Below, piece by piece: positions 4,425-13,712 of a stretch of DNA of 64,000 bases. How positions within the stretch are numbered: position 1 is the first letter of the stretch; every line of letters begins with the position of its first letter. The stretch lies in assembly GCA_017467305.1 (NCBI GenBank), contig JAFTSM010000065.1, positions 1,353-65,352 on the forward strand. Reading direction: 5' to 3'. A model generated the notes under the pieces. The model saw only the letters and a program-made list of their open reading frames with translations. It did not search any database and had not been told where the DNA came from. The translations under genes were made by a program, and so were the position numbers. Source of the stretch: Candidatus Gastranaerophilales bacterium. Its GTDB lineage: Bacteria > Cyanobacteriota > Vampirovibrionia > Gastranaerophilales > Gastranaerophilaceae.

Positions 4425-6275
4425 TCACCGTATGTTTGAATTAATATCAACTAAAGAATTATCTGCTTCTACATATTGCCATTTTTTTATATTTTCGCTA
4501 ATTGTTAATAGTGCATCTACTTGTAGTTCTTTAATTGTTTCCCAGATTATTTCTTGTGAAAAAATTGGTAGAATTGTTTTGAAGTCTATAATTTTAGTGT
4601 TTTTGCCATCATTTATTTCTATTTTTTTGTTTTCATCATCGTATTTAACATTGTATTCAACACCATTTATAATATTTGTTGTTGTACCATTTTGATTTAT
4701 TTTGAAACTTCTAGAAATGTTCATTATTGTAGTTTCATCATCTTCTTCAATTTTACAAATTTTATATGAATATTGTGAATATTCTATTTTCCCATTTTCA
4801 TCCTTTTTCTCTGTATACGAACGTTCTATAGAATAATCATTCATTTGAAAATCTTCTGTGTAAGATATACTTCCATCTTTATTTTGTACAACACTTGAAA
4901 GAGGTATTCCTTCTGTTAATACACAATTTTCTATTTCTTCATCAACAGAACCATCATTACCTTCTTTAATATCTTTTATGTCATAGTATTTTGCTTCAAA
5001 GACTCCAGTTAGAAGATTTGAAGCTTTTGATTGAATCACTCCTATAACTTCATGTGTATCAAAATCTTGTATAAACTCTGTAAGTTCTCTTATTTGACCA
5101 TATTTATCATATTTTGCTTTAAATACACCAGTTTTGTTTCTCATTATTGAAGAGGTTGAATTGTCTTTGTAAGTTTCTAATCTACTTTGAGTTTTGTCTC
5201 CATATCCATCAAAAGTTTGTACAAGAGTTATCCTTGTTCCATTTTCAGCTCTAATATTTCTTGTTAAAATGACTTCTTGTACATCATCTGTTTGGAGTTG
5301 TATTACAGATACCTCATATTCCTCTTTGAATAAATCCCTTATTTCTGGATGGATTTCGATTATTTTTTCTAATGCTTCAATTTGAAAATTGTTTAATGCT
5401 GATAAAGAAGCCGCTGTTGAATAACTATAGCCTCGTTCTCTATAGGTCGAGTATTCGTCGTTTTCTCCAGCACCTTCTTCTATCAAGATAATATCGTATA
5501 TTGCATTAGGATTTACTCCAAGTGCTAATAATTCTTTTGCACGTTTATATTCTTCTTCAGACATTTTTGCAAAATCTGTTATATTAATGTCTCCTACATT
5601 TAGTGAAAAAATTTCTGGTAGTCTTTTTTCTGCTTCTTCATCAAGTTCTGAAATTTCTACTATGTAATCTTGATTTATTCCTTGTTCTAGATAATTTTTA
5701 CATTTTTCTTGTCGTTTCGTATTAAGTTTTGAAATATCACAAGCGACATTTATTTCTGTTCCTTTTAAAAATTCTATAGCTGTTTGTCTTTGTTCGTCTG
5801 AGAGCTTTGCAAGATTACCAGCAACAAGTGGTGTATAAAAATATTTTTGCATAAGTCGTTTTGCCGTTTGTAGTTCTTCTTCATTTAATTCTGCAAAAAG
5901 TTTTAGACAATCGTTCTCTAATCCATCTTTTTTATATTGCAGAGCTTTTTTGAAATTATCGTGTTCTAGGCTTGCAATGATAAGGATAAAATTGTCAAAT
6001 AATCCATTTTTTACAAGTTCTTTTGCTTGATTAAATTTATCACCTTCCAATGTTGTTAAATCTTGAATGTGTTCGTAATTTACCCCTCTTTTTAGTAAAT
6101 ATAGGGCTTTTAGGTATTGTTTTTGATTAAGGTTAGCAAGAAAAAATGAATATGGTGGTGTAACCCCCTCTTTTTCAAGTTCTGATTGTCTCTTTTGGAC
6201 AATAATTGTAGGTATTTGTTGTTTTCTTCCAAATGAATTTGTATATTTAAATGTCTTTATGTTCTCGACTCTCAT
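4425..6275 (-). CDS. hypothetical protein with eight tandem ~27-aa helical repeats
   Basis: 616-aa ORF with no signal peptide. The N-terminus is MRVENIKTFKYTNSFGRK. Repeats lie at residues ~50-265. Confidence 0.6.
   Translation of the reverse strand: MRVENIKTFKYTNSFGRKQQIPTIIVQKRQSELEKEGVTPPYSFFLANLNQKQYLKALYLLKRGVNYEHIQDLTTLEGDKFNQAKELVKNGLFDNFILIIASLEHDNFKKALQYKKDGLENDCLKLFAELNEEELQTAKRLMQKYFYTPLVAGNLAKLSDEQRQTAIEFLKGTEINVACDISKLNTKRQEKCKNYLEQGINQDYIVEISELDEEAEKRLPEIFSLNVGDINITDFAKMSEEEYKRAKELLALGVNPNAIYDIILIEEGAGENDEYSTYRERGYSYSTAASLSALNNFQIEALEKIIEIHPEIRDLFKEEYEVSVIQLQTDDVQEVILTRNIRAENGTRITLVQTFDGYGDKTQSRLETYKDNSTSSIMRNKTGVFKAKYDKYGQIRELTEFIQDFDTHEVIGVIQSKASNLLTGVFEAKYYDIKDIKEGNDGSVDEEIENCVLTEGIPLSSVVQNKDGSISYTEDFQMNDYSIERSYTEKKDENGKIEYSQYSYKICKIEEDDETTIMNISRSFKINQNGTTTNIINGVEYNVKYDDENKKIEINDGKNTKIIDFKTILPIFSQEIIWETIKELQVDALLTISENIKKWQYVEADNSLVDINSNIR
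5481..6128 (-). repeat. 8 x ~27-aa protein-level tandem repeat (x-x-x-[FY]-x-x-A-K-x-L-x-x-x-G-[VIL]-N...)
   Basis: Units by eye include NQKQYLKALYLLKRGVNYEHIQDLTTL, EGDKFNQAKELVKNGLFDNFILIIASL, EHDNFKKALQYKKDGLENDCLKLFAEL and ... SEEEYKRAKELLALGVNPNAIYDIILI. Confidence 0.6.
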
Positions 6276-6346
6276 ATCTCTTTTAAAACAAAACTAGTTT
6301 TATTTTGCTAGTTTGCTTAAAATACTTAAAATTTTTTTTTATTTTC

Positions 6347-6373
6347 TAAAGTTTTATAAAAATGTGCCGATAA
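6347..6373 (+). promoter_or_regulatory. sigma28 (FliA/SigD)-type promoter, exact consensus
   Basis: TAAAGTTT (6347-6354), an 11-nt spacer, then GCCGATAA (6366-6373). This equals the enterobacterial consensus TAAAGTTT-N11-GCCGATAA. It lies 20 nt upstream of the ATG at 6394. Confidence 0.7.
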
Positions 6374-6393
6374 ATATAATAAGTACTTATTAT

Positions 6394-8925
6394 ATGGAGA
6401 AAATAGTGGCATTTGACGTTTCAAAAGCATATGACGTTATGAAATCACTAGCACAAAAAGTCAGTGGTAGTGAGGATGTTTCACGTTCTGATGCAAAAAA
6501 AATGTTTAAAAGTGCTGATACTGATGGGGACGGTATTCTTTCTCTTGATGAATTTAAAAGTTTTTATATGTCTACTGATGACTATCAATCTTTAGAAGAA
6601 GATTACCTAGAAGCCTTTGAAGCTATTGCTGGTTTAGATGGCGAAGAAGGTCTTTCTGAAGAAGATATTGAGTCTGTTTCAGAAGAAGTTAAAGCCAATG
6701 AAGTTGATGAAACACAAGCTGCAAATGGTGCTGGCTCTTCCGGAGGTGGAGGTGGTGGCGGAGGCGGCGGAAACGGTGGCGGTTCTGACAAAACCAATAA
6801 TGATACACAAACTGGAGTTAAACCAGTTTCATTAACTGGTAATGAAACGCCTGCTGAATTACGTGAAGGCAGAGATGATGTTTTATCATCTTTACAAGAA
6901 GCAAAAAATGCAAAATCAGAAATAAAAAATAGTGATGCTTATAAAAGTGCAGAAGATTCTTACGAAAATGCTGATGAAACATATAATGAATCTTTAGATG
7001 CTTTAGTTGATATTTATAACCAAAAGAAGGAAGCTGGTGAACAGCTAACAGAGCAAGAAGAAAATTTGGTTGAATTAGAAGAAGAAAAAGATGCAATAAC
7101 AGAAGAAGTTAATGCTCAGAAGGAAACAATTACAAATGTTGAAACTCAAATTTCAACAGCTCAAGAAAATTTGAGTACAGTAACAGCTTCACTTGAAGGA
7201 TTAGAAGAACCTTCAACATCATTGATTGTTCCAATTTATGATGAGGAAGGTAATGTAATTGGAGAAGATACATCAGCATATGATGCTGCGATGGCTGCAT
7301 ATGAAGCTCAAAAAGCAGAATTAGAAGCCCAAAAAGCAGAAATAGAAAGTAATATTACCGATTTAGAAAGCCAGCTTGCTGAAGAAGAAACTAAATTAGA
7401 AACATTAAATGAAAAGGTATTTACTAATGATGCAGCTATTGCAGAGGCTCTTGTTGCGTTAGAAACTGCTGCTCAAAATTCTAAAGAGGTTGATGAGGCA
7501 GAGTTAAAGGCTATTCAAGCATCTAAACAATCTAGTATTGATTATTTGACTGCTTGGCAAAACTTAATGACTGTAGAAACACAACTTTTACAGCAAAATG
7601 CTGCTGATATTAATCAATTAAGGGCAAATTTGAAAACTTATGATGATGCTTTAGATAAATATGATGAAGAACAAAATTCTAATATGCCAGAAGGTATGTC
7701 AACAAAGAATGGCTTTGTTTATGAAGGCGAAGGTGAAGATGCTAAATTGATGTTGCCAGTAAGTGCAACAGAAGAAGGTTATGATTTACCAGAAGGCTAT
7801 AAAATTAATGAATCTGATGGGACTGTTGTAGACGAGAATGGTAATGTTGTTGGAAAGGTTGTAAATACTCAATCTGACGCAAAAGGTAATGATGGTGTTG
7901 CTGATGATGTACAACGTGTATATTTATATGCTGATGCGGTAGCAACATCAAACGATGATACTGATACGACAGATGACCCTACCTATATGATGTCTACAAA
8001 TTCTGAAGATTATAACATTACAAAATCAGAGGCTGAAAAAGCAAAGGCTGAGTTTATTGATGCTTACTCTAGTGATGATGATAGTGTAAAAGCTATTTTA
8101 GATGCTGTTGGCAATGGTGAAATATCAGATTCTGTTGCTAAATATTTATTAGCTGACATCACTAATGGTGATACTGGAAAATTAATGGATTATTTTGGTG
8201 GTGATGATTCTCAATCATTAGATAATGAGTATGTAAAACAACTAAATAATATGTTTTCAAGTATTGAAAATGCTGCCGAGAATTATAAGGCAAATATTTC
8301 CAAATCAAATTCTGGTAGTAACAAACCAGCACCAACCTTAGAAGAGTTTTTAGCCTCCGTTGACGACCCACAAGCTAAAAAATGGTATACGCAGATGTTT
8401 ACTGAACTTGGTTATGACTATGATACATTCTGGGATACTTCTGATATTCCAAGAGATTTTCAATCAGTTTATACAGATGCATTTGCGACTGGTACAATAA
8501 GAAGTGCTGGTTGCGGTATCACAAGTTTATCTATGTTATCAGAATATTTGACAGGTGAATATAAATCGCCTACAGAATTAGCAGGTGGCTATACTGGTGA
8601 TAACCCAGCTACTGCGTTAGAAAGAGGCTTAAATGCCACTGGTGTAGAATGGTCTCGTGCGTTTGGTAGTGATGCGATGTCAGCCTTAGATGCTTCTTTA
8701 GATGCTGGTAAACCTGTAATTATAAATGTTAGAGGAAGCTCTGCATTTACAGAAGGTGGACACTTTATGGTTGTATCAGGAAAAACAGCAGATGGAAAAT
8801 ACATAGTGAATGACCCTAATATTGAAAATTATTTGAACCCAAGTATGGTTGATGGCTTTACTAATGGGTTTAGTAGAGAAGATATTGAGAGGGGCTTAAG
8901 CCACGTAATTGTATTTAATAAATAG
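6394..8925 (+). CDS. large acidic protein: EF-hand, coiled coil, LPEGY repeat, C-terminal C39-like cysteine peptidase domain
   Basis: Canonical EF-hand loop DTDGDGILSLDEF (6517-6555). A Gly-run is followed by a long E/A/Q-rich heptad-like region. The C-terminus reads IRSAGCGITSLSML ... GGHFMVVSGK ... VNDPN (Cys/His/Asp order of the Peptidase_C39_2 type). The track start at 6313 is a TTG with a hydrophobic junk extension, so the ATG at 6394 is preferred. No signal peptide. Confidence 0.7.
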   Translation: MEKIVAFDVSKAYDVMKSLAQKVSGSEDVSRSDAKKMFKSADTDGDGILSLDEFKSFYMSTDDYQSLEEDYLEAFEAIAGLDGEEGLSEEDIESVSEEVKANEVDETQAANGAGSSGGGGGGGGGGNGGGSDKTNNDTQTGVKPVSLTGNETPAELREGRDDVLSSLQEAKNAKSEIKNSDAYKSAEDSYENADETYNESLDALVDIYNQKKEAGEQLTEQEENLVELEEEKDAITEEVNAQKETITNVETQISTAQENLSTVTASLEGLEEPSTSLIVPIYDEEGNVIGEDTSAYDAAMAAYEAQKAELEAQKAEIESNITDLESQLAEEETKLETLNEKVFTNDAAIAEALVALETAAQNSKEVDEAELKAIQASKQSSIDYLTAWQNLMTVETQLLQQNAADINQLRANLKTYDDALDKYDEEQNSNMPEGMSTKNGFVYEGEGEDAKLMLPVSATEEGYDLPEGYKINESDGTVVDENGNVVGKVVNTQSDAKGNDGVADDVQRVYLYADAVATSNDDTDTTDDPTYMMSTNSEDYNITKSEAEKAKAEFIDAYSSDDDSVKAILDAVGNGEISDSVAKYLLADITNGDTGKLMDYFGGDDSQSLDNEYVKQLNNMFSSIENAAENYKANISKSNSGSNKPAPTLEEFLASVDDPQAKKWYTQMFTELGYDYDTFWDTSDIPRDFQSVYTDAFATGTIRSAGCGITSLSMLSEYLTGEYKSPTELAGGYTGDNPATALERGLNATGVEWSRAFGSDAMSALDASLDAGKPVIINVRGSSAFTEGGHFMVVSGKTADGKYIVNDPNIENYLNPSMVDGFTNGFSREDIERGLSHVIVFNK

Positions 8926-9324
8926 TTTTTTATCCTAATTTCTTTTTATTCTTTCTATAAATAAGCAAAAAAAATGTTTGCAGAGTTTGCAAACATCAAA
9001 TAAACACGAGGATATTAAGAGAGAGAGTAAAATAAATTTGTTTTATAATCATTATGCCTAAAATGGTTGATTTTTTTATGTATAGTGTGTCCCTTAACAT
9101 TGCCTCTTTGTGTTTTTTTGTTAAAGAGTTCTTTGTAGTCCTTTCTGATTTATCTCTTACTCTTATATAAAGTTTTTTTATCTTCTAAAATTGCCTTTTA
9201 AAAATAATGTTTGCTTAATTTTTCTTAATATTTTCTTTAAATGCTATTTAATATTAGTTTTTAAGCTATATTCCTATTTATATTACAAAAATGTTACAAA
9301 AATAGAACAAAAGTCTGAAATTAT

Positions 9325-9352
9325 TAAAGAAAATTTTAATATCTGTCGATTA
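9325..9352 (+). promoter_or_regulatory. sigma28-like promoter (weaker match)
   Basis: TAAAGAAA (9325-9332), a 12-nt spacer, then GTCGATTA (9345-9352; 6 of 8 matches to GCCGATAA). AAGGAG and the ATG at 9388 lie downstream. Confidence 0.45.
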
Positions 9353-9387
9353 GAAGTCATAGTGTATAGAAAAGGAGTAAAAAATCT

Positions 9388-11436
9388 ATGGCTGACATGA
9401 ATGTAAACCAAAGCAATATTGAAAAAATTGCTCAATATCTGCAGCAAAATGGTGAATCGACAAAAGAAGTTAGTAGTAAAGAAGTGGAATCTGTTTTTAA
9501 CACTATGTCTGGTAATGGAGCAGAAGCTGTTGAAACAGAAGAATTTGCTACTACTCTTGCAGAAACATTTCTAGAAAGAGAAATTGAAGACATCGAGGAT
9601 GATTATCTAGCTGCGTGGGAAGACTTTGCAGCTTCTGATGGTGAAAAAGGTAAATTATCTTCTGATGATATGAAACTTGTATCAGATCTTCTTGATGCTT
9701 ATAAAGAAAGCAAGTTGCCAGATGATTGGAAAGTTGAGGATGGCGTAGTTTACGATGCAAGTGGTAAAGAAGTTGTTGCAACTGACCATAAAGATTTACC
9801 AGAAGGTCATAAAATAACAGACGACGGTAAAATTTTAGATTCAGAGGGTAATCAAATCGGTGTAGTTGCAGAAACTGAAGTTTATGACCCAGAAACTGGC
9901 AAATATAATACGGTTGAGTCATTCTATACTTATCCAAAGGAAGAAGCTACTGAAAAAACAGAAAAACCTGTTTCTAAAGCTGATTTACCGGAAGGATATT
10001 CAATTACAGATGACGGTAAAATCTTAGATAAAGACGGTAAAGAAATTGGTAGAACTGAAGTTTCGTATGAAGATGCAACATCTGACGGAGTAAATGATAA
10101 GGTTACTCAATACTTCTTGTATGAAGAAAAATCTGAGCTTCCAGAAGGTTGGACTGAAGATGAAAATGGAGTAATTAAAGATGAAAATGGTCGTGAATTA
10201 TCTCCAGTAGATGCACAAACAATTGACGAAGGTAATTATGATGTCAAAGACGGTGTTATCTATAATGAATTTGGTCAAGAAGTTGGACGTGTAGTTTCTC
10301 AAGAAAGTGATGCGATTGGTGAAGATGGAGTTCCAGAAACTGTAGCTTCTTATTATCTATATAACGACGTACCAGAAGTTAAAGAAGTACAAATTCCACC
10401 TTCAGAATTGCCAGAAGGTTATACAATAACCGATGACGGTAAGATTTTAGATAAAGATGGAAATGTATTTGGTTGCATAAAAGAAACTTATATTGATGCT
10501 GCAAATGGCGACGGTGTTAATGATAAAGTTACTCAATATTTTAAATATGAGGAAGTGCCAGCTGAAGAAACCAAGTTACCGGAAGGTTGGACTGAAAATG
10601 AAGACGGTACTGTAACTGATGATAAAGGAAACAAATTATTGCCAGTCGATGCTGAAGTAATCGATAATGGCGATTATGAGGTTAAAGATGGAAAAATTTA
10701 CGATAAAACAACTGGCAATGAAGTTGGACGTGTAGTTTCTCAAGAAACAGATGCTATCGATGAAGAAGGTGAACCAGTTGATGAAACTGTAGATTCATAT
10801 TACTTATATCAGACAGAAACTGTAGAAGACCCGCAACCTGTAGCAGAAACTCCAACAACAGAAGAATTGCCAGAATTAGAAGCTGGTAATGAAGAAGGTT
10901 CAGAAGAAAAATCTGTGATTACTGATGAAGCAGCAGCACAATTTGCTAAACAATTGTATGACACAACAGCTGGTCGTTTGGGTACAGATGATGAACAGTT
11001 TATGGATATTCTTGAAAATCCAGACCTAACATCTGATGACTGGGTAAAAATTATTTCTGCATACAATGAATCATATGGTAGCTTTATCCAAGACGTAGAT
11101 GCTGATTTCTCAGCTATGTCTGGCAAAGAGGATATAATGACTAGCATTACTTCTAAATTATTAGAAGCTGCAGAAGGTGGTAGCGAAGAGGCTATTAATC
11201 TGTTGGCAAAAGAGTTCCATAATGGTACAGCTGGCATGACTGGTACTGCAGATGAATTTATCTCAGCATTTATGAATGGTGCTAGTGATGATGTCTTAAT
11301 GGCTGTAATGGAATCATATTCAGAAGTAAATGAAGGTGCTAATATCTATGATGCTGTTAAAAAAGATTTCTCTGGTCAAATTGAAGATTCATACATTGCT
11401 AGATTAAATGAAATCTTAGCTAAAATGCGAGAATAA
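9388..11436 (+). CDS. large acidic repeat protein with two C-terminal annexin-like repeats
   Basis: The N-terminal region aligns with the 6394 protein (EDDYLAAWEDFAASDGEKGKLSSDDMKLVS vs EEDYLEAFEAIAGLDGEEGLSEEDIESVS). It has LPEGY/LPEGW repeats. C-terminal motifs are GRLGTDDEQFMDIL...YNESYGSFIQDVDADFS and GMTGTADEFISAFM...YSEVNEGANIYDAVKKDFSG. Confidence 0.7.
   Translation: MADMNVNQSNIEKIAQYLQQNGESTKEVSSKEVESVFNTMSGNGAEAVETEEFATTLAETFLEREIEDIEDDYLAAWEDFAASDGEKGKLSSDDMKLVSDLLDAYKESKLPDDWKVEDGVVYDASGKEVVATDHKDLPEGHKITDDGKILDSEGNQIGVVAETEVYDPETGKYNTVESFYTYPKEEATEKTEKPVSKADLPEGYSITDDGKILDKDGKEIGRTEVSYEDATSDGVNDKVTQYFLYEEKSELPEGWTEDENGVIKDENGRELSPVDAQTIDEGNYDVKDGVIYNEFGQEVGRVVSQESDAIGEDGVPETVASYYLYNDVPEVKEVQIPPSELPEGYTITDDGKILDKDGNVFGCIKETYIDAANGDGVNDKVTQYFKYEEVPAEETKLPEGWTENEDGTVTDDKGNKLLPVDAEVIDNGDYEVKDGKIYDKTTGNEVGRVVSQETDAIDEEGEPVDETVDSYYLYQTETVEDPQPVAETPTTEELPELEAGNEEGSEEKSVITDEAAAQFAKQLYDTTAGRLGTDDEQFMDILENPDLTSDDWVKIISAYNESYGSFIQDVDADFSAMSGKEDIMTSITSKLLEAAEGGSEEAINLLAKEFHNGTAGMTGTADEFISAFMNGASDDVLMAVMESYSEVNEGANIYDAVKKDFSGQIEDSYIARLNEILAKMRE
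9982..10818 (+). repeat. tandem duplication of a ~423-nt (~140-aa) unit inside the CDS
   Basis: Copy 1 starts at ~9982 (DLPEGYSITDDGKILDKDGKEIG...VTQYFLYEE...LPEGWTEDENG...GRVVSQESDAIGEDG...SYYLY). Copy 2 starts at ~10405 (ELPEGYTITDDGKILDKDGNVFG...VTQYFKYEE...LPEGWTENEDG...GRVVSQETDAIDEEG...SYYLY). The 28-nt string GAAGTTGGACGTGTAGTTTCTCAAGAAA occurs in both. Confidence 0.75.
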
Positions 11437-13109: not shown

Positions 13110-13646
13110 TTATTTTCTTTCGTGGATTATATTTATTTTTCTTAAATTTCCACTATGCTTGAATACATTCAATGGGCTTTCTTTTCCAAAATTTCTACGC
13201 CACTCTTTCATAAATGTTTTGTCTTTCATAAGCATTTTGACATAGTTTAGGTTGTTTTCAAAAACCATTGCTTTGTTCAATATGTCAGAAACATAGCCTA
13301 AATCATTTTCGGCAATTGCTCTTATATAGTGACTGTATAAACTTTCTTGATATTTGCCACTTCTTTTTGAAAAGCCGGTTTTGTTAACTCCTACAATTCT
13401 AAAAAATTCTTTTTCTGTAATTGTATTTGAATATGGATTTAGTGAATCTTTGTTGATTGAAACAAATTCTATATTTTCTCCAGTATTAAAGAAACTGTAT
13501 TGATTGCTTTCTTCTGTTCTAAATGCAGAATTTAATTTGTAAAAACTATCTTCAGTTAATAACTCTGAAATGAAATTCTCAACAGTATTAACTTCATCTA
13601 AATTGATTTCGATATTATTAGCTAGGGCTGTTTTCTTTTTAGTCAT
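13110..13646 (-). CDS. hypothetical protein (sigma28-promoter-driven)
   Basis: 178-aa ORF with AGGAG SD at 13653-13657 (reverse strand). No recognisable domain and no signal peptide. Confidence 0.6.
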   Translation of the reverse strand: MTKKKTALANNIEINLDEVNTVENFISELLTEDSFYKLNSAFRTEESNQYSFFNTGENIEFVSINKDSLNPYSNTITEKEFFRIVGVNKTGFSKRSGKYQESLYSHYIRAIAENDLGYVSDILNKAMVFENNLNYVKMLMKDKTFMKEWRRNFGKESPLNVFKHSGNLRKINIIHERK

Positions 13647-13685: not shown

Positions 13686-13712
13686 ATATCGGCATTTTTA
13701 TATTTTTCTTTA
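13686..13712 (-). promoter_or_regulatory. sigma28 (FliA/SigD)-type promoter
   Basis: The minus strand reads TAAAGAAA-aatataaaaat-GCCGATAT, which equals the B. subtilis SigD consensus TAAA-N15-GCCGATAT. It is ~40 nt upstream of the ATG at 13646. Confidence 0.7.

Follow-up and report, generated by a model that had tools for sequence, protein, structure and literature searches.

The class-3 (sigma-28) promoters of enterobacteria follow the consensus TAAAGTTT-N11-GCCGATAA, those read by Bacillus SigD take the form TAAA-N15-GCCGATAT, and transcription from sigma-28 promoters usually starts 7–9 nt past the -10 box. The Gastranaerophilales are gut Melainabacteria, non-photosynthetic relatives of the cyanobacteria. 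The 'incomplete flagella' of these widespread gut bacteria have puzzled genome studies since 2013–14; their partial flagellar gene sets have been read as flagella loss (PMC4040986) and have also been postulated to act in secretion (bioRxiv 10.64898/2026.04.24.720558). In Campylobacter jejuni, non-flagellar proteins of the Cia/Fed/FlaC type are expressed from sigma-28 promoters and exported by the flagellum's type III secretion system (T3SS) (PMC2764114, PMC5223770, PMC9856085). In the literature that we searched, no paper dealt with sigma-28 effectors of Melainabacteria or with a second type III system in them. Here we analyze a stretch of 64,000 nt (hereafter the window) from a Candidatus Gastranaerophilales bacterium, whose assembly is 1.85 Mb in 75 contigs, 89% complete and 30% G+C. 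Positions 6347-6373 of the window are identical to the enterobacterial consensus at every letter and also fit the Bacillus form, and they precede a gene for an acidic 839-aa protein that ends in a cysteine peptidase domain. Judged by sequence comparison, this peptidase gene appears to be one well-supported case from a regulon that extends across the lineage, is unpublished and is linked with a distinct flagellum-related machine.

Results

A conserved sigma-28-type promoter precedes the peptidase gene

A sequence-only reading of this DNA had reported an exact sigma-28 consensus at 6347-6373 on the forward strand, and direct reading of the window confirmed it. The promoter and the gene are arranged as follows.

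6347-6354, + strand: -35 element TAAAGTTT of the sigma-28-type promoter; read directly, TAAAG kept in 6 of 7 aligned homologous loci
6355-6365, + strand: spacer TATAAAAATGT, 11 nt; read directly
6366-6373, + strand: -10 element GCCGATAA; read directly, GCCGA invariant in 7 of 7 aligned loci
6380-6382, + strand: predicted, unmapped transcription start, placed by the usual 7–9 nt gap after a sigma-28 -10 box
6396-6399, + strand: ribosome-binding site GGAG; a GGAG/GGA box stands at the equal position in homologous loci
6406-8925, + strand: coding sequence, 839 aa from GTG 6406, stop codon 8923-8925; supported by homologs and by the database copy P0002 (839 aa, 100% identical)

With frequencies of 0.35 for A and T and 0.15 for G and C, arithmetic gives the exact 16-base match a chance of ~7e-10 per position, ~1e-4 per window and ~3e-3 per genome. 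The genome holds one exact copy, and ten dinucleotide-preserving whole-genome shuffles held none. A search of the window allowing up to three mismatches is uninformative, because 1.6 matches are expected by chance.

It could be argued that the motif is incidental and that the gene is transcribed by the housekeeping sigma factor through TTTATA-N16-TATAAT (6353-6380), or by read-through. A perfect TATAAT, paired with a poor -35 element, does lie at 6375-6380, and such matches are frequent in AT-rich genomes. However, sigma-70-like matches are not enriched (19 observed against 23 in the shuffles), and the TATAAT is lost from homologous loci in which the sigma-28 boxes are kept. Read-through into the peptidase gene is impossible since the upstream gene is divergent, and the exact 16-base match lies far beyond chance. 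We consider this explanation very unlikely.

The coding sequence had earlier been started at ATG 6394, giving 843 aa. That ATG is present and would add four residues, but it lacks a ribosome-binding site and was rejected. GTG 6406 stands 6 nt after the GGAG, and P0002 and all homologs begin there (the MAFDV.../MSLE position). This start gives a product of 839 aa and leaves 32 nt between the end of the -10 box and the start codon.

This locus was aligned with six fetched ones (alignment A3; homologs 42–81% identical; 145 nt before and around the start). Across the seven loci, conservation is confined to four features with constant spacing (-35 box, -10 box, GGAG/GGA box, start codon), and the DNA upstream of the -35 box is unalignable. 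More distant orthologs (loci L028-L033) retain a CCGATA box 25–35 nt before the ATG; homologs in other phyla have Sec signal peptides and no CCGATA-type box. This footprint is the strongest support for promoter function in our analysis. We conclude that 6347-6373 is a sigma-28-type (FliA/WhiG) promoter, for which FliA dependence and the start site are predicted.

The same promoter type marks a set of acidic, signal-less proteins

Promoters of the same type lie 21–43 nt before the starts of about 25–30 genes of this genome, whose products are mostly very acidic and free of signal peptides. The pattern TAAAG-N16/17-CGATAN occurs at 30 sites genome-wide. Eleven of them lie 15–60 nt before a same-strand open reading frame (ORF) start as called, and ORF calls that extend too far hid four more, so that the total is at least 15 of 30; the control counts of such start-proximal sites were 1 of 65 for TAAA[ACT] and 0 of 21 for the reversed control. 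When the spacing was scanned with CCGATA, counts peaked at the canonical spacing, with 9 sites where the control had 0, and a position weight matrix (PWM) added near-matches, also 24–43 nt before starts. Sites precede 12 of the 41 acidic proteins (pI < 4.6, at least 250 aa) as against 13 of the 956 others. The form TAAAG-N12-CCGATA, 3 nt under the canonical spacing, is found six times in the genome and once in the reversed control.

The products include a 1184-aa protein with a C-terminal ADP-ribosyltransferase exotoxin domain (ADPrib_exo_Tox), a 719-aa esterase, a 378-aa class-3 lipase (Lipase_3), an 878-aa RHS-repeat protein, and proteins of 640, 623, 666, 581 and 396 aa without assigned function. 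Two HD-GYP regulators, several small orphans and all three genomic copies of a family that we call MGLAASQ also belong to the set, and the small sigma-28-driven proteins matched no Pfam family. No recognizable flagellin, hook-associated, motor or chemotaxis gene is in the regulon. By pairwise BLAST, the N-termini of the large proteins form three related groups that have in common an amphipathic helix, a stretch rich in Ser/Gly and a motif of the (E/D)xS(V/I/L)F type; the 839-aa peptidase protein groups with its downstream neighbor P0034 (E = 5e-9). The layout is polymorphic, homologs sharing the N-terminus and differing in length and C-terminal end. A hidden Markov model (HMM) of the N-termini of nine regulon proteins brought no additional members to light; since it is circular for those nine, the grouping uses pairwise BLAST only.

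The motif is enriched in all 61 family genomes sampled, with typically 8–20 copies per genome against 1–4 in the control. In swimming relatives it also precedes signal-less EF-hand proteins and MGLAASQ homologs.

The MGLAASQ family ('MG(L/M)AASQAR...TFKTFG') is encoded here at C41:56728-57684 (-), C36:10949-11692 (-) and C44:47798-48670 (+), where C numbers denote contigs of this genome, and in relatives at loci L108-L136. Its members have strictly conserved long N- and C-terminal helices around a variable beta-rich middle, a flagellin-like layout. Of 101 genomes from the order, 98 encode the family, with up to 17 matches per genome, and sigma-28-like boxes stand before nearly all copies. The top Foldseek matches of the 318-aa member were flagellins (E ~0.01), but homology to flagellin was rejected, as there was no Pfam match and hhalign against the family's own flagellins gave a probability of 0.1.

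The two HD-GYP candidates (C41:26382-27755, - strand; C44:60183-61310, + strand) were identified by sequence motifs, not by Pfam. Both have sigma-28-type boxes upstream, and one has a receiver-like N-terminus. By analogy with Streptomyces WhiG, they offer hints of cyclic-di-GMP signaling within the regulon. A further sigma-28-like box, at C64:5674-5700 (+), lies 126 nt before a gene (5826-8372) whose 848-aa product has an N-terminus of the prepilin type (KGFSLAELLIALLVI) and, at its C-terminal end, a chaperone region like that of tail fibres.

FliA is present in a genome in which motility genes were not found

The genome has a single gene for a FliA/WhiG sigma factor (C11:15075-15878; TIGR02479, 247 bits, cut-off 189.6). 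Among solved structures, WhiG (2e-60) and E. coli FliA (2e-46) are its best relatives, and the gene sits among housekeeping genes, outside any flagellar operon. Across the family, FliA was found in 60 of 61 genomes (one genome per genus). Both fliA and flagellar-type genes, whose absence the sequence-only reading had named as a refutation, are in the genome.

That reading took the element for a class-3 flagellar promoter and its gene for one co-expressed with motility in a flagellated bacterium. The letter-exact match to the enterobacterial consensus and the presence of fliA and flagellar-type genes speak for it, but the genes of motility itself were not found. In this genome, where completeness limits absences, Flagellin_N had no match, hook and hook-associated proteins were not found (the Flg_bb_rod matches are all rod genes), and the only MotA copy is of the ExbB/TolQ type. 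The FliG_C torque domain is absent from this genome, from G135 of the same genus, from the closed genome G067 and from the five-contig genome G029, and is present in the flagellated relative G119. FlgH and FlgI, of the L and P rings, were found in none of the 52 genus genomes, this one included, and flagellin occurs in only 7 of 86 family genomes.

The motif stands upstream of only 1 of the 15 flagellin genes examined in swimming relatives, and far upstream at that. Six flagellin loci (L081-L086, from G107, G108, G110, G112, G116 and G119) share other upstream words, such as TATACTTAAGTTGTAGG and CAGTCTAAACA. Flagellin genes that mostly lack the motif and share other words suggest a different flagellin promoter class in this lineage. 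Because this control within the lineage failed, the link from the motif to sigma-28 rests on the specificity of FliA across phyla. Without flagellin, hook, FliG_C, a true MotA, FlgH or FlgI, co-regulation with motility fails; this explanation is largely refuted, and we regard it as extremely unlikely.

The retained flagellar genes form a paralogous class

A cluster on contig C1 encodes FliI, FlhA, FliH, FliF, FliE, a lytic transglycosylase, FlgC, FlgB and two FlgF/G rod proteins, as well as a 326-aa protein with only faint FliG_N/M similarity. FlhB and a FliN-domain protein are encoded elsewhere in the genome. On C10, ORFs beside the FliN-like gene resemble FliP, FliQ and FliR in size and N-terminal sequence and are 26–42% identical to fliPQR of G119. 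A flagellar-type export gate (FlhA, FlhB, FliPQR, FliI) is present, and it is of a paralogous class.

The FHIPEP scores of FlhA fall into two classes, one of 703–736 bits, which includes the FlhA of this genome and is found in 60 of 61 genomes, and one of 855–885 bits, found in about half. FliF shows the same division, with a 49–71%-identical copy in 31 of 31 genomes and a 26–33% copy only alongside the high-scoring FlhA; for FlhB, a 64–86%-identical copy is in 31 of 31 genomes and a 30–38% copy in the same subset. The canonical flagellar classes of FlhA, FliF and FlhB thus occupy the same half or so of the genomes each time. The flagellated G119 has a first-class flhA-fliH-fliG-like cluster, 78, 43 and 32% identical to the genes of this genome, together with a canonical fliPQR-flhB-flhA operon on another contig and fliF-fliG on a third. 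On these comparisons, the retained flagellar genes are a second, paralogous FliF/FlhA/FlhB set, not a decayed flagellum. Together they make up a complete flagellum-related type III export machine, without FliG torque domain, motor, hook, filament or L/P rings. This two-class result for FlhA, FliF and FlhB is the main addition of our analysis.

A second sigma factor of 218 aa (C69:38604-39260, - strand), with weak FliA-like matches, is encoded directly after the paralogous flhB. Two membrane-less paralogs of the cytoplasmic docking domain of FlhA were also observed, at C41:17663-19123 (-) and C34:11130-11810 (+). One of them, of 486 aa, carries a faint DUF4177-like head and matches positions 321-652 of FHIPEP. 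Such soluble paralogs may be accessories of the export machine.

Neither a type VI secretion system (T6SS) sheath nor VirB4 of the type IV secretion system (T4SS) was found in the genome. The type III set is therefore the only recognized route for signal-less proteins, type I secretion lying outside the search.

The product combines an EF-hand module with a papain-fold peptidase domain

The earlier description of the product as very acidic and without a signal peptide holds: its pI is 4.05, and the Kyte-Doolittle maximum (15-residue stretch) within the first 45 residues is only 0.51. The N-terminus has no hydrophobic leader and consists of a helical, conserved EF-hand module instead of a disordered signal. 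Of the three domains that had been proposed, two were recovered by Pfam, EF-hand_1 at residues 34-60 (28.4 bits, cut-off 25.4) and Peptidase_C39_2 (PF13529) at residues 703-809 (41.5 bits, cut-off 24, E = 2.5e-10), whereas the coiled coil drew only weak Pfam matches. The domains are laid out as follows.

6406-6690, + strand: N-terminal module with amphipathic helix, (E/D)xS(V/I/L)F-type motif and EF-hand (Pfam, homolog N-termini, BLAST)
6727-6786, + strand: Gly/Ser-rich linker GAGSSGGGGGGGGGGNGGGS (translation)
6841-7683, + strand: acidic coiled-coil region (translation; weak Pfam matches as above)
8260-8922, + strand: C-terminal papain-fold C39-like cysteine peptidase domain with helical lead-in (PF13529, AlphaFold2, Foldseek)
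8512-8514, 8761-8763 and 8812-8814, + strand: catalytic Cys707, His790 and Asp807 in the 843-aa numbering (invariant in alignments)

The N-terminal module is common to P0034 and to homologs with other C-termini. The three catalytic residues are invariant in a 29-sequence alignment covering several phyla (A2) and in a 22-sequence alignment (A1). An AlphaFold2 model of the C-terminal 221 residues had a pLDDT of 84. The best Foldseek matches of the peptidase domain were the CdiA-CT toxin 8ssk/8ssm, the papain-like toxin 9l5u, which belongs to a toxin/immunity pair, the C39-like peptidase 3erv and the peptidase domains of ComA/PCAT1. The target-normalized TM-scores of ~0.5–0.6 support, for the model, a papain-like fold class and not a substrate. 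A PDB sequence search with the domain gave no meaningful match. Assignment to the C39 bacteriocin-processing peptidases (PF03412), N-terminal domains of ABC exporters that cut double-glycine leaders, was rejected, as the Pfam scan showed no ABC or transmembrane domains and the peptidase is C-terminal.

Neighboring genes and intergenic DNA

The peptidase gene is followed by a paralog with its own sigma-28-like element, and a second strong promoter of this type lies further downstream in the window.

9325-9352, + strand: weaker sigma-28-like element TAAAGAAA-N12-GTCGATTA, 35 nt before P0034, PWM 11.8
9388-11436, + strand: coding sequence of P0034, the paralog, with DUF3659 repeats and an annexin-like end
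13686-13712, - strand: second strong sigma-28-type promoter TAAAGAAA-N11-GCCGATAT (genome position C38:15038-15064)
13110-13646, - strand: 178-aa orphan gene, 40 nt after the second strong promoter

The annexin-ended paralog is a conserved downstream neighbor in at least one other locus. The 460-nt gap after the peptidase gene holds only short hydrophobic ORFs and no immunity-like gene, and no small gene is conserved downstream of the peptidase gene in six homologous loci. An Rfam search of window positions 5900-9500 gave no match.

Window positions 8950-9200, in the gap between the paralogs, are nearly identical in two other species (L030, L031), in which the flanking proteins are ~58% identical. 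The gap contains a hairpin at 8973-8997, which is terminator-shaped on the - strand only, and a 23-aa hydrophobic ORF at 9067-9138. The segment is possibly a small RNA or a cassette resembling a type I toxin.

At window positions 4425-6275 (- strand), P0035 is a signal-less protein that begins M-(R/K)-(I/V)-x-x-(I/V)..., followed by F-G-(R/K). Many signal-less proteins begin in this way, e.g. MRVENIKTFKYTNSFGRK and MRINPNVCHPNFGRAF, and others are encoded at C41:53853, C41:52880-53248 and C11:4930. This pattern may be a second lineage-specific N-terminal tag.

Discussion

We propose that RNA polymerase carrying the genome's single FliA (C11) would initiate near 6380-6382 and so produce the acidic, signal-less 839-aa protein. 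The other genes under the same control would supply a polymorphic, effector-like set with related N-terminal modules and varied enzyme ends. Sigma-28 would thereby couple the expression of these proteins to the paralogous type III machine, which may export them with the N-terminal module as the recognition element. The 839-aa protein is probably cargo of this flagellum-like machine and not a motility gene product, and export by a flagellar-type apparatus is the best available hypothesis for a product without a signal peptide. For the proposal as a whole, from promoter to exported cargo, we see about an even chance of being right.

The regulon may instead depend on sigma-28 without its products being cargo. 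FliA would then act like Streptomyces WhiG or chlamydial sigma-28, in development or stationary phase, and the proteins would either remain intracellular or reach the outside by another route, e.g. type I secretion, vesicles or lysis. This is consistent with WhiG as the closest solved relative of the sigma factor, with the place of fliA outside any flagellar operon, with the HD-GYP regulators in the regulon, with an N-terminus that is a folded EF-hand module, and with the failure to find an outer-membrane ring or FlgM. On the other hand, an exotoxin-family ADP-ribosyltransferase, lipases, RHS proteins and a toxin-like protease are unlikely as cytoplasmic housekeeping proteins, the type III set is the only apparatus recognized for signal-less proteins, no T6SS or T4SS having been found, and this set and FliA are both kept in essentially every genus. 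We think this alternative rather unlikely.

Several points weigh against the main proposal. The start site and the dependence on FliA are predictions, as is export for every member of the regulon, the perfect TATAAT, although not conserved in the homologs, could serve sigma-70, and the 89% completeness limits the absences in this genome. The 218-aa sigma factor beside flhB could control the apparatus, or could itself recognize the motif in place of FliA. Neither FlgM nor an export chaperone was recognized in the genome. No L or P ring was found, in searches that did not extend to secretins, which leaves the machine no recognized passage through the outer membrane. The first ~20 residues of the 839-aa protein are predicted to be helical and to lie within the folded EF-hand module, unlike classical disordered flagellar export signals. 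The lack of a conserved immunity gene next to the peptidase gene weakens an antibacterial-toxin function.

A bolder extension of the proposed export is that the FliF/FlhA/FlhB/FliH/FliI/rod set, kept by all sampled genera of the family, represents a type III secretion branch that had gone unrecognized, the third after flagellum and injectisome, with the 839-aa protein as one cargo and the N-terminal module for targeting. Such a machine, without motor, hook and filament, may be dedicated to polymorphic effectors under sigma-28 control. We put this forward tentatively and think it more probably wrong than right.

The puzzle of the incomplete flagella is made testable by these results, which point to a separate type III machine that is universally conserved and to a regulon of ~25–30 genes under a late-flagellar sigma factor in a non-swimmer. 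They name candidates for the substrates and for the targeting module, together with a promoter signature, of a possible new secretion route derived from the flagellum, and they raise the question of whether Gastranaerophilales attack their neighbors or act on host cells.

Like enterobacterial class-3 promoters, the element described here has the same boxes and spacing, a cognate FliA/WhiG factor and a short leader; unlike in the class-3 flagellar regulon, signal-less modular enzyme and toxin proteins dominate, in a host without a flagellum. Like the present proteins, the Campylobacter Cia/Fed/FlaC proteins are expressed from sigma-28 promoters, lack a Sec signal and come from a genome that encodes an export gate of the flagellar type. 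Their conduit, however, is a complete rotating flagellum, whereas the candidate here is a paralogous machine without motor, hook or filament, and the proteins whose export we predict are much larger (up to 1184 aa) and polymorphic.

In polymorphic toxins (CdiA-CT, Rhs, LXG and MIX-type effectors), an invariant trafficking module at the N-terminus bears exchangeable C-terminal toxin domains. In a similar way, the present proteins combine N-terminal modules that are related with C-terminal enzyme domains that are not, and the fold of the peptidase is closest to a CdiA-CT toxin and to the papain-like toxin of a toxin/immunity pair. In contrast to those toxins, no conserved immunity gene is adjacent, and the EF-hand module is tied to no known secretion system. 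The above-cut-off match, the Cys-His-Asp triad and the fold agree with Peptidase_C39_2 (PF13529; Bacillus anthracis 3erv; ComA/PCAT1), but unlike in ComA/PCAT1 the domain is not fused to an ABC transporter and ends an 839-aa coiled-coil protein. Finally, the flagellar genes analyzed here (flhA, flhB, fliI, rod) are the same, and from the same lineage, as the published partial sets of the Gastranaerophilales. Beyond those descriptions, they prove to be a paralogous system in its own right, present side by side with true flagella in swimming relatives, and have a candidate cargo regulon under sigma-28.

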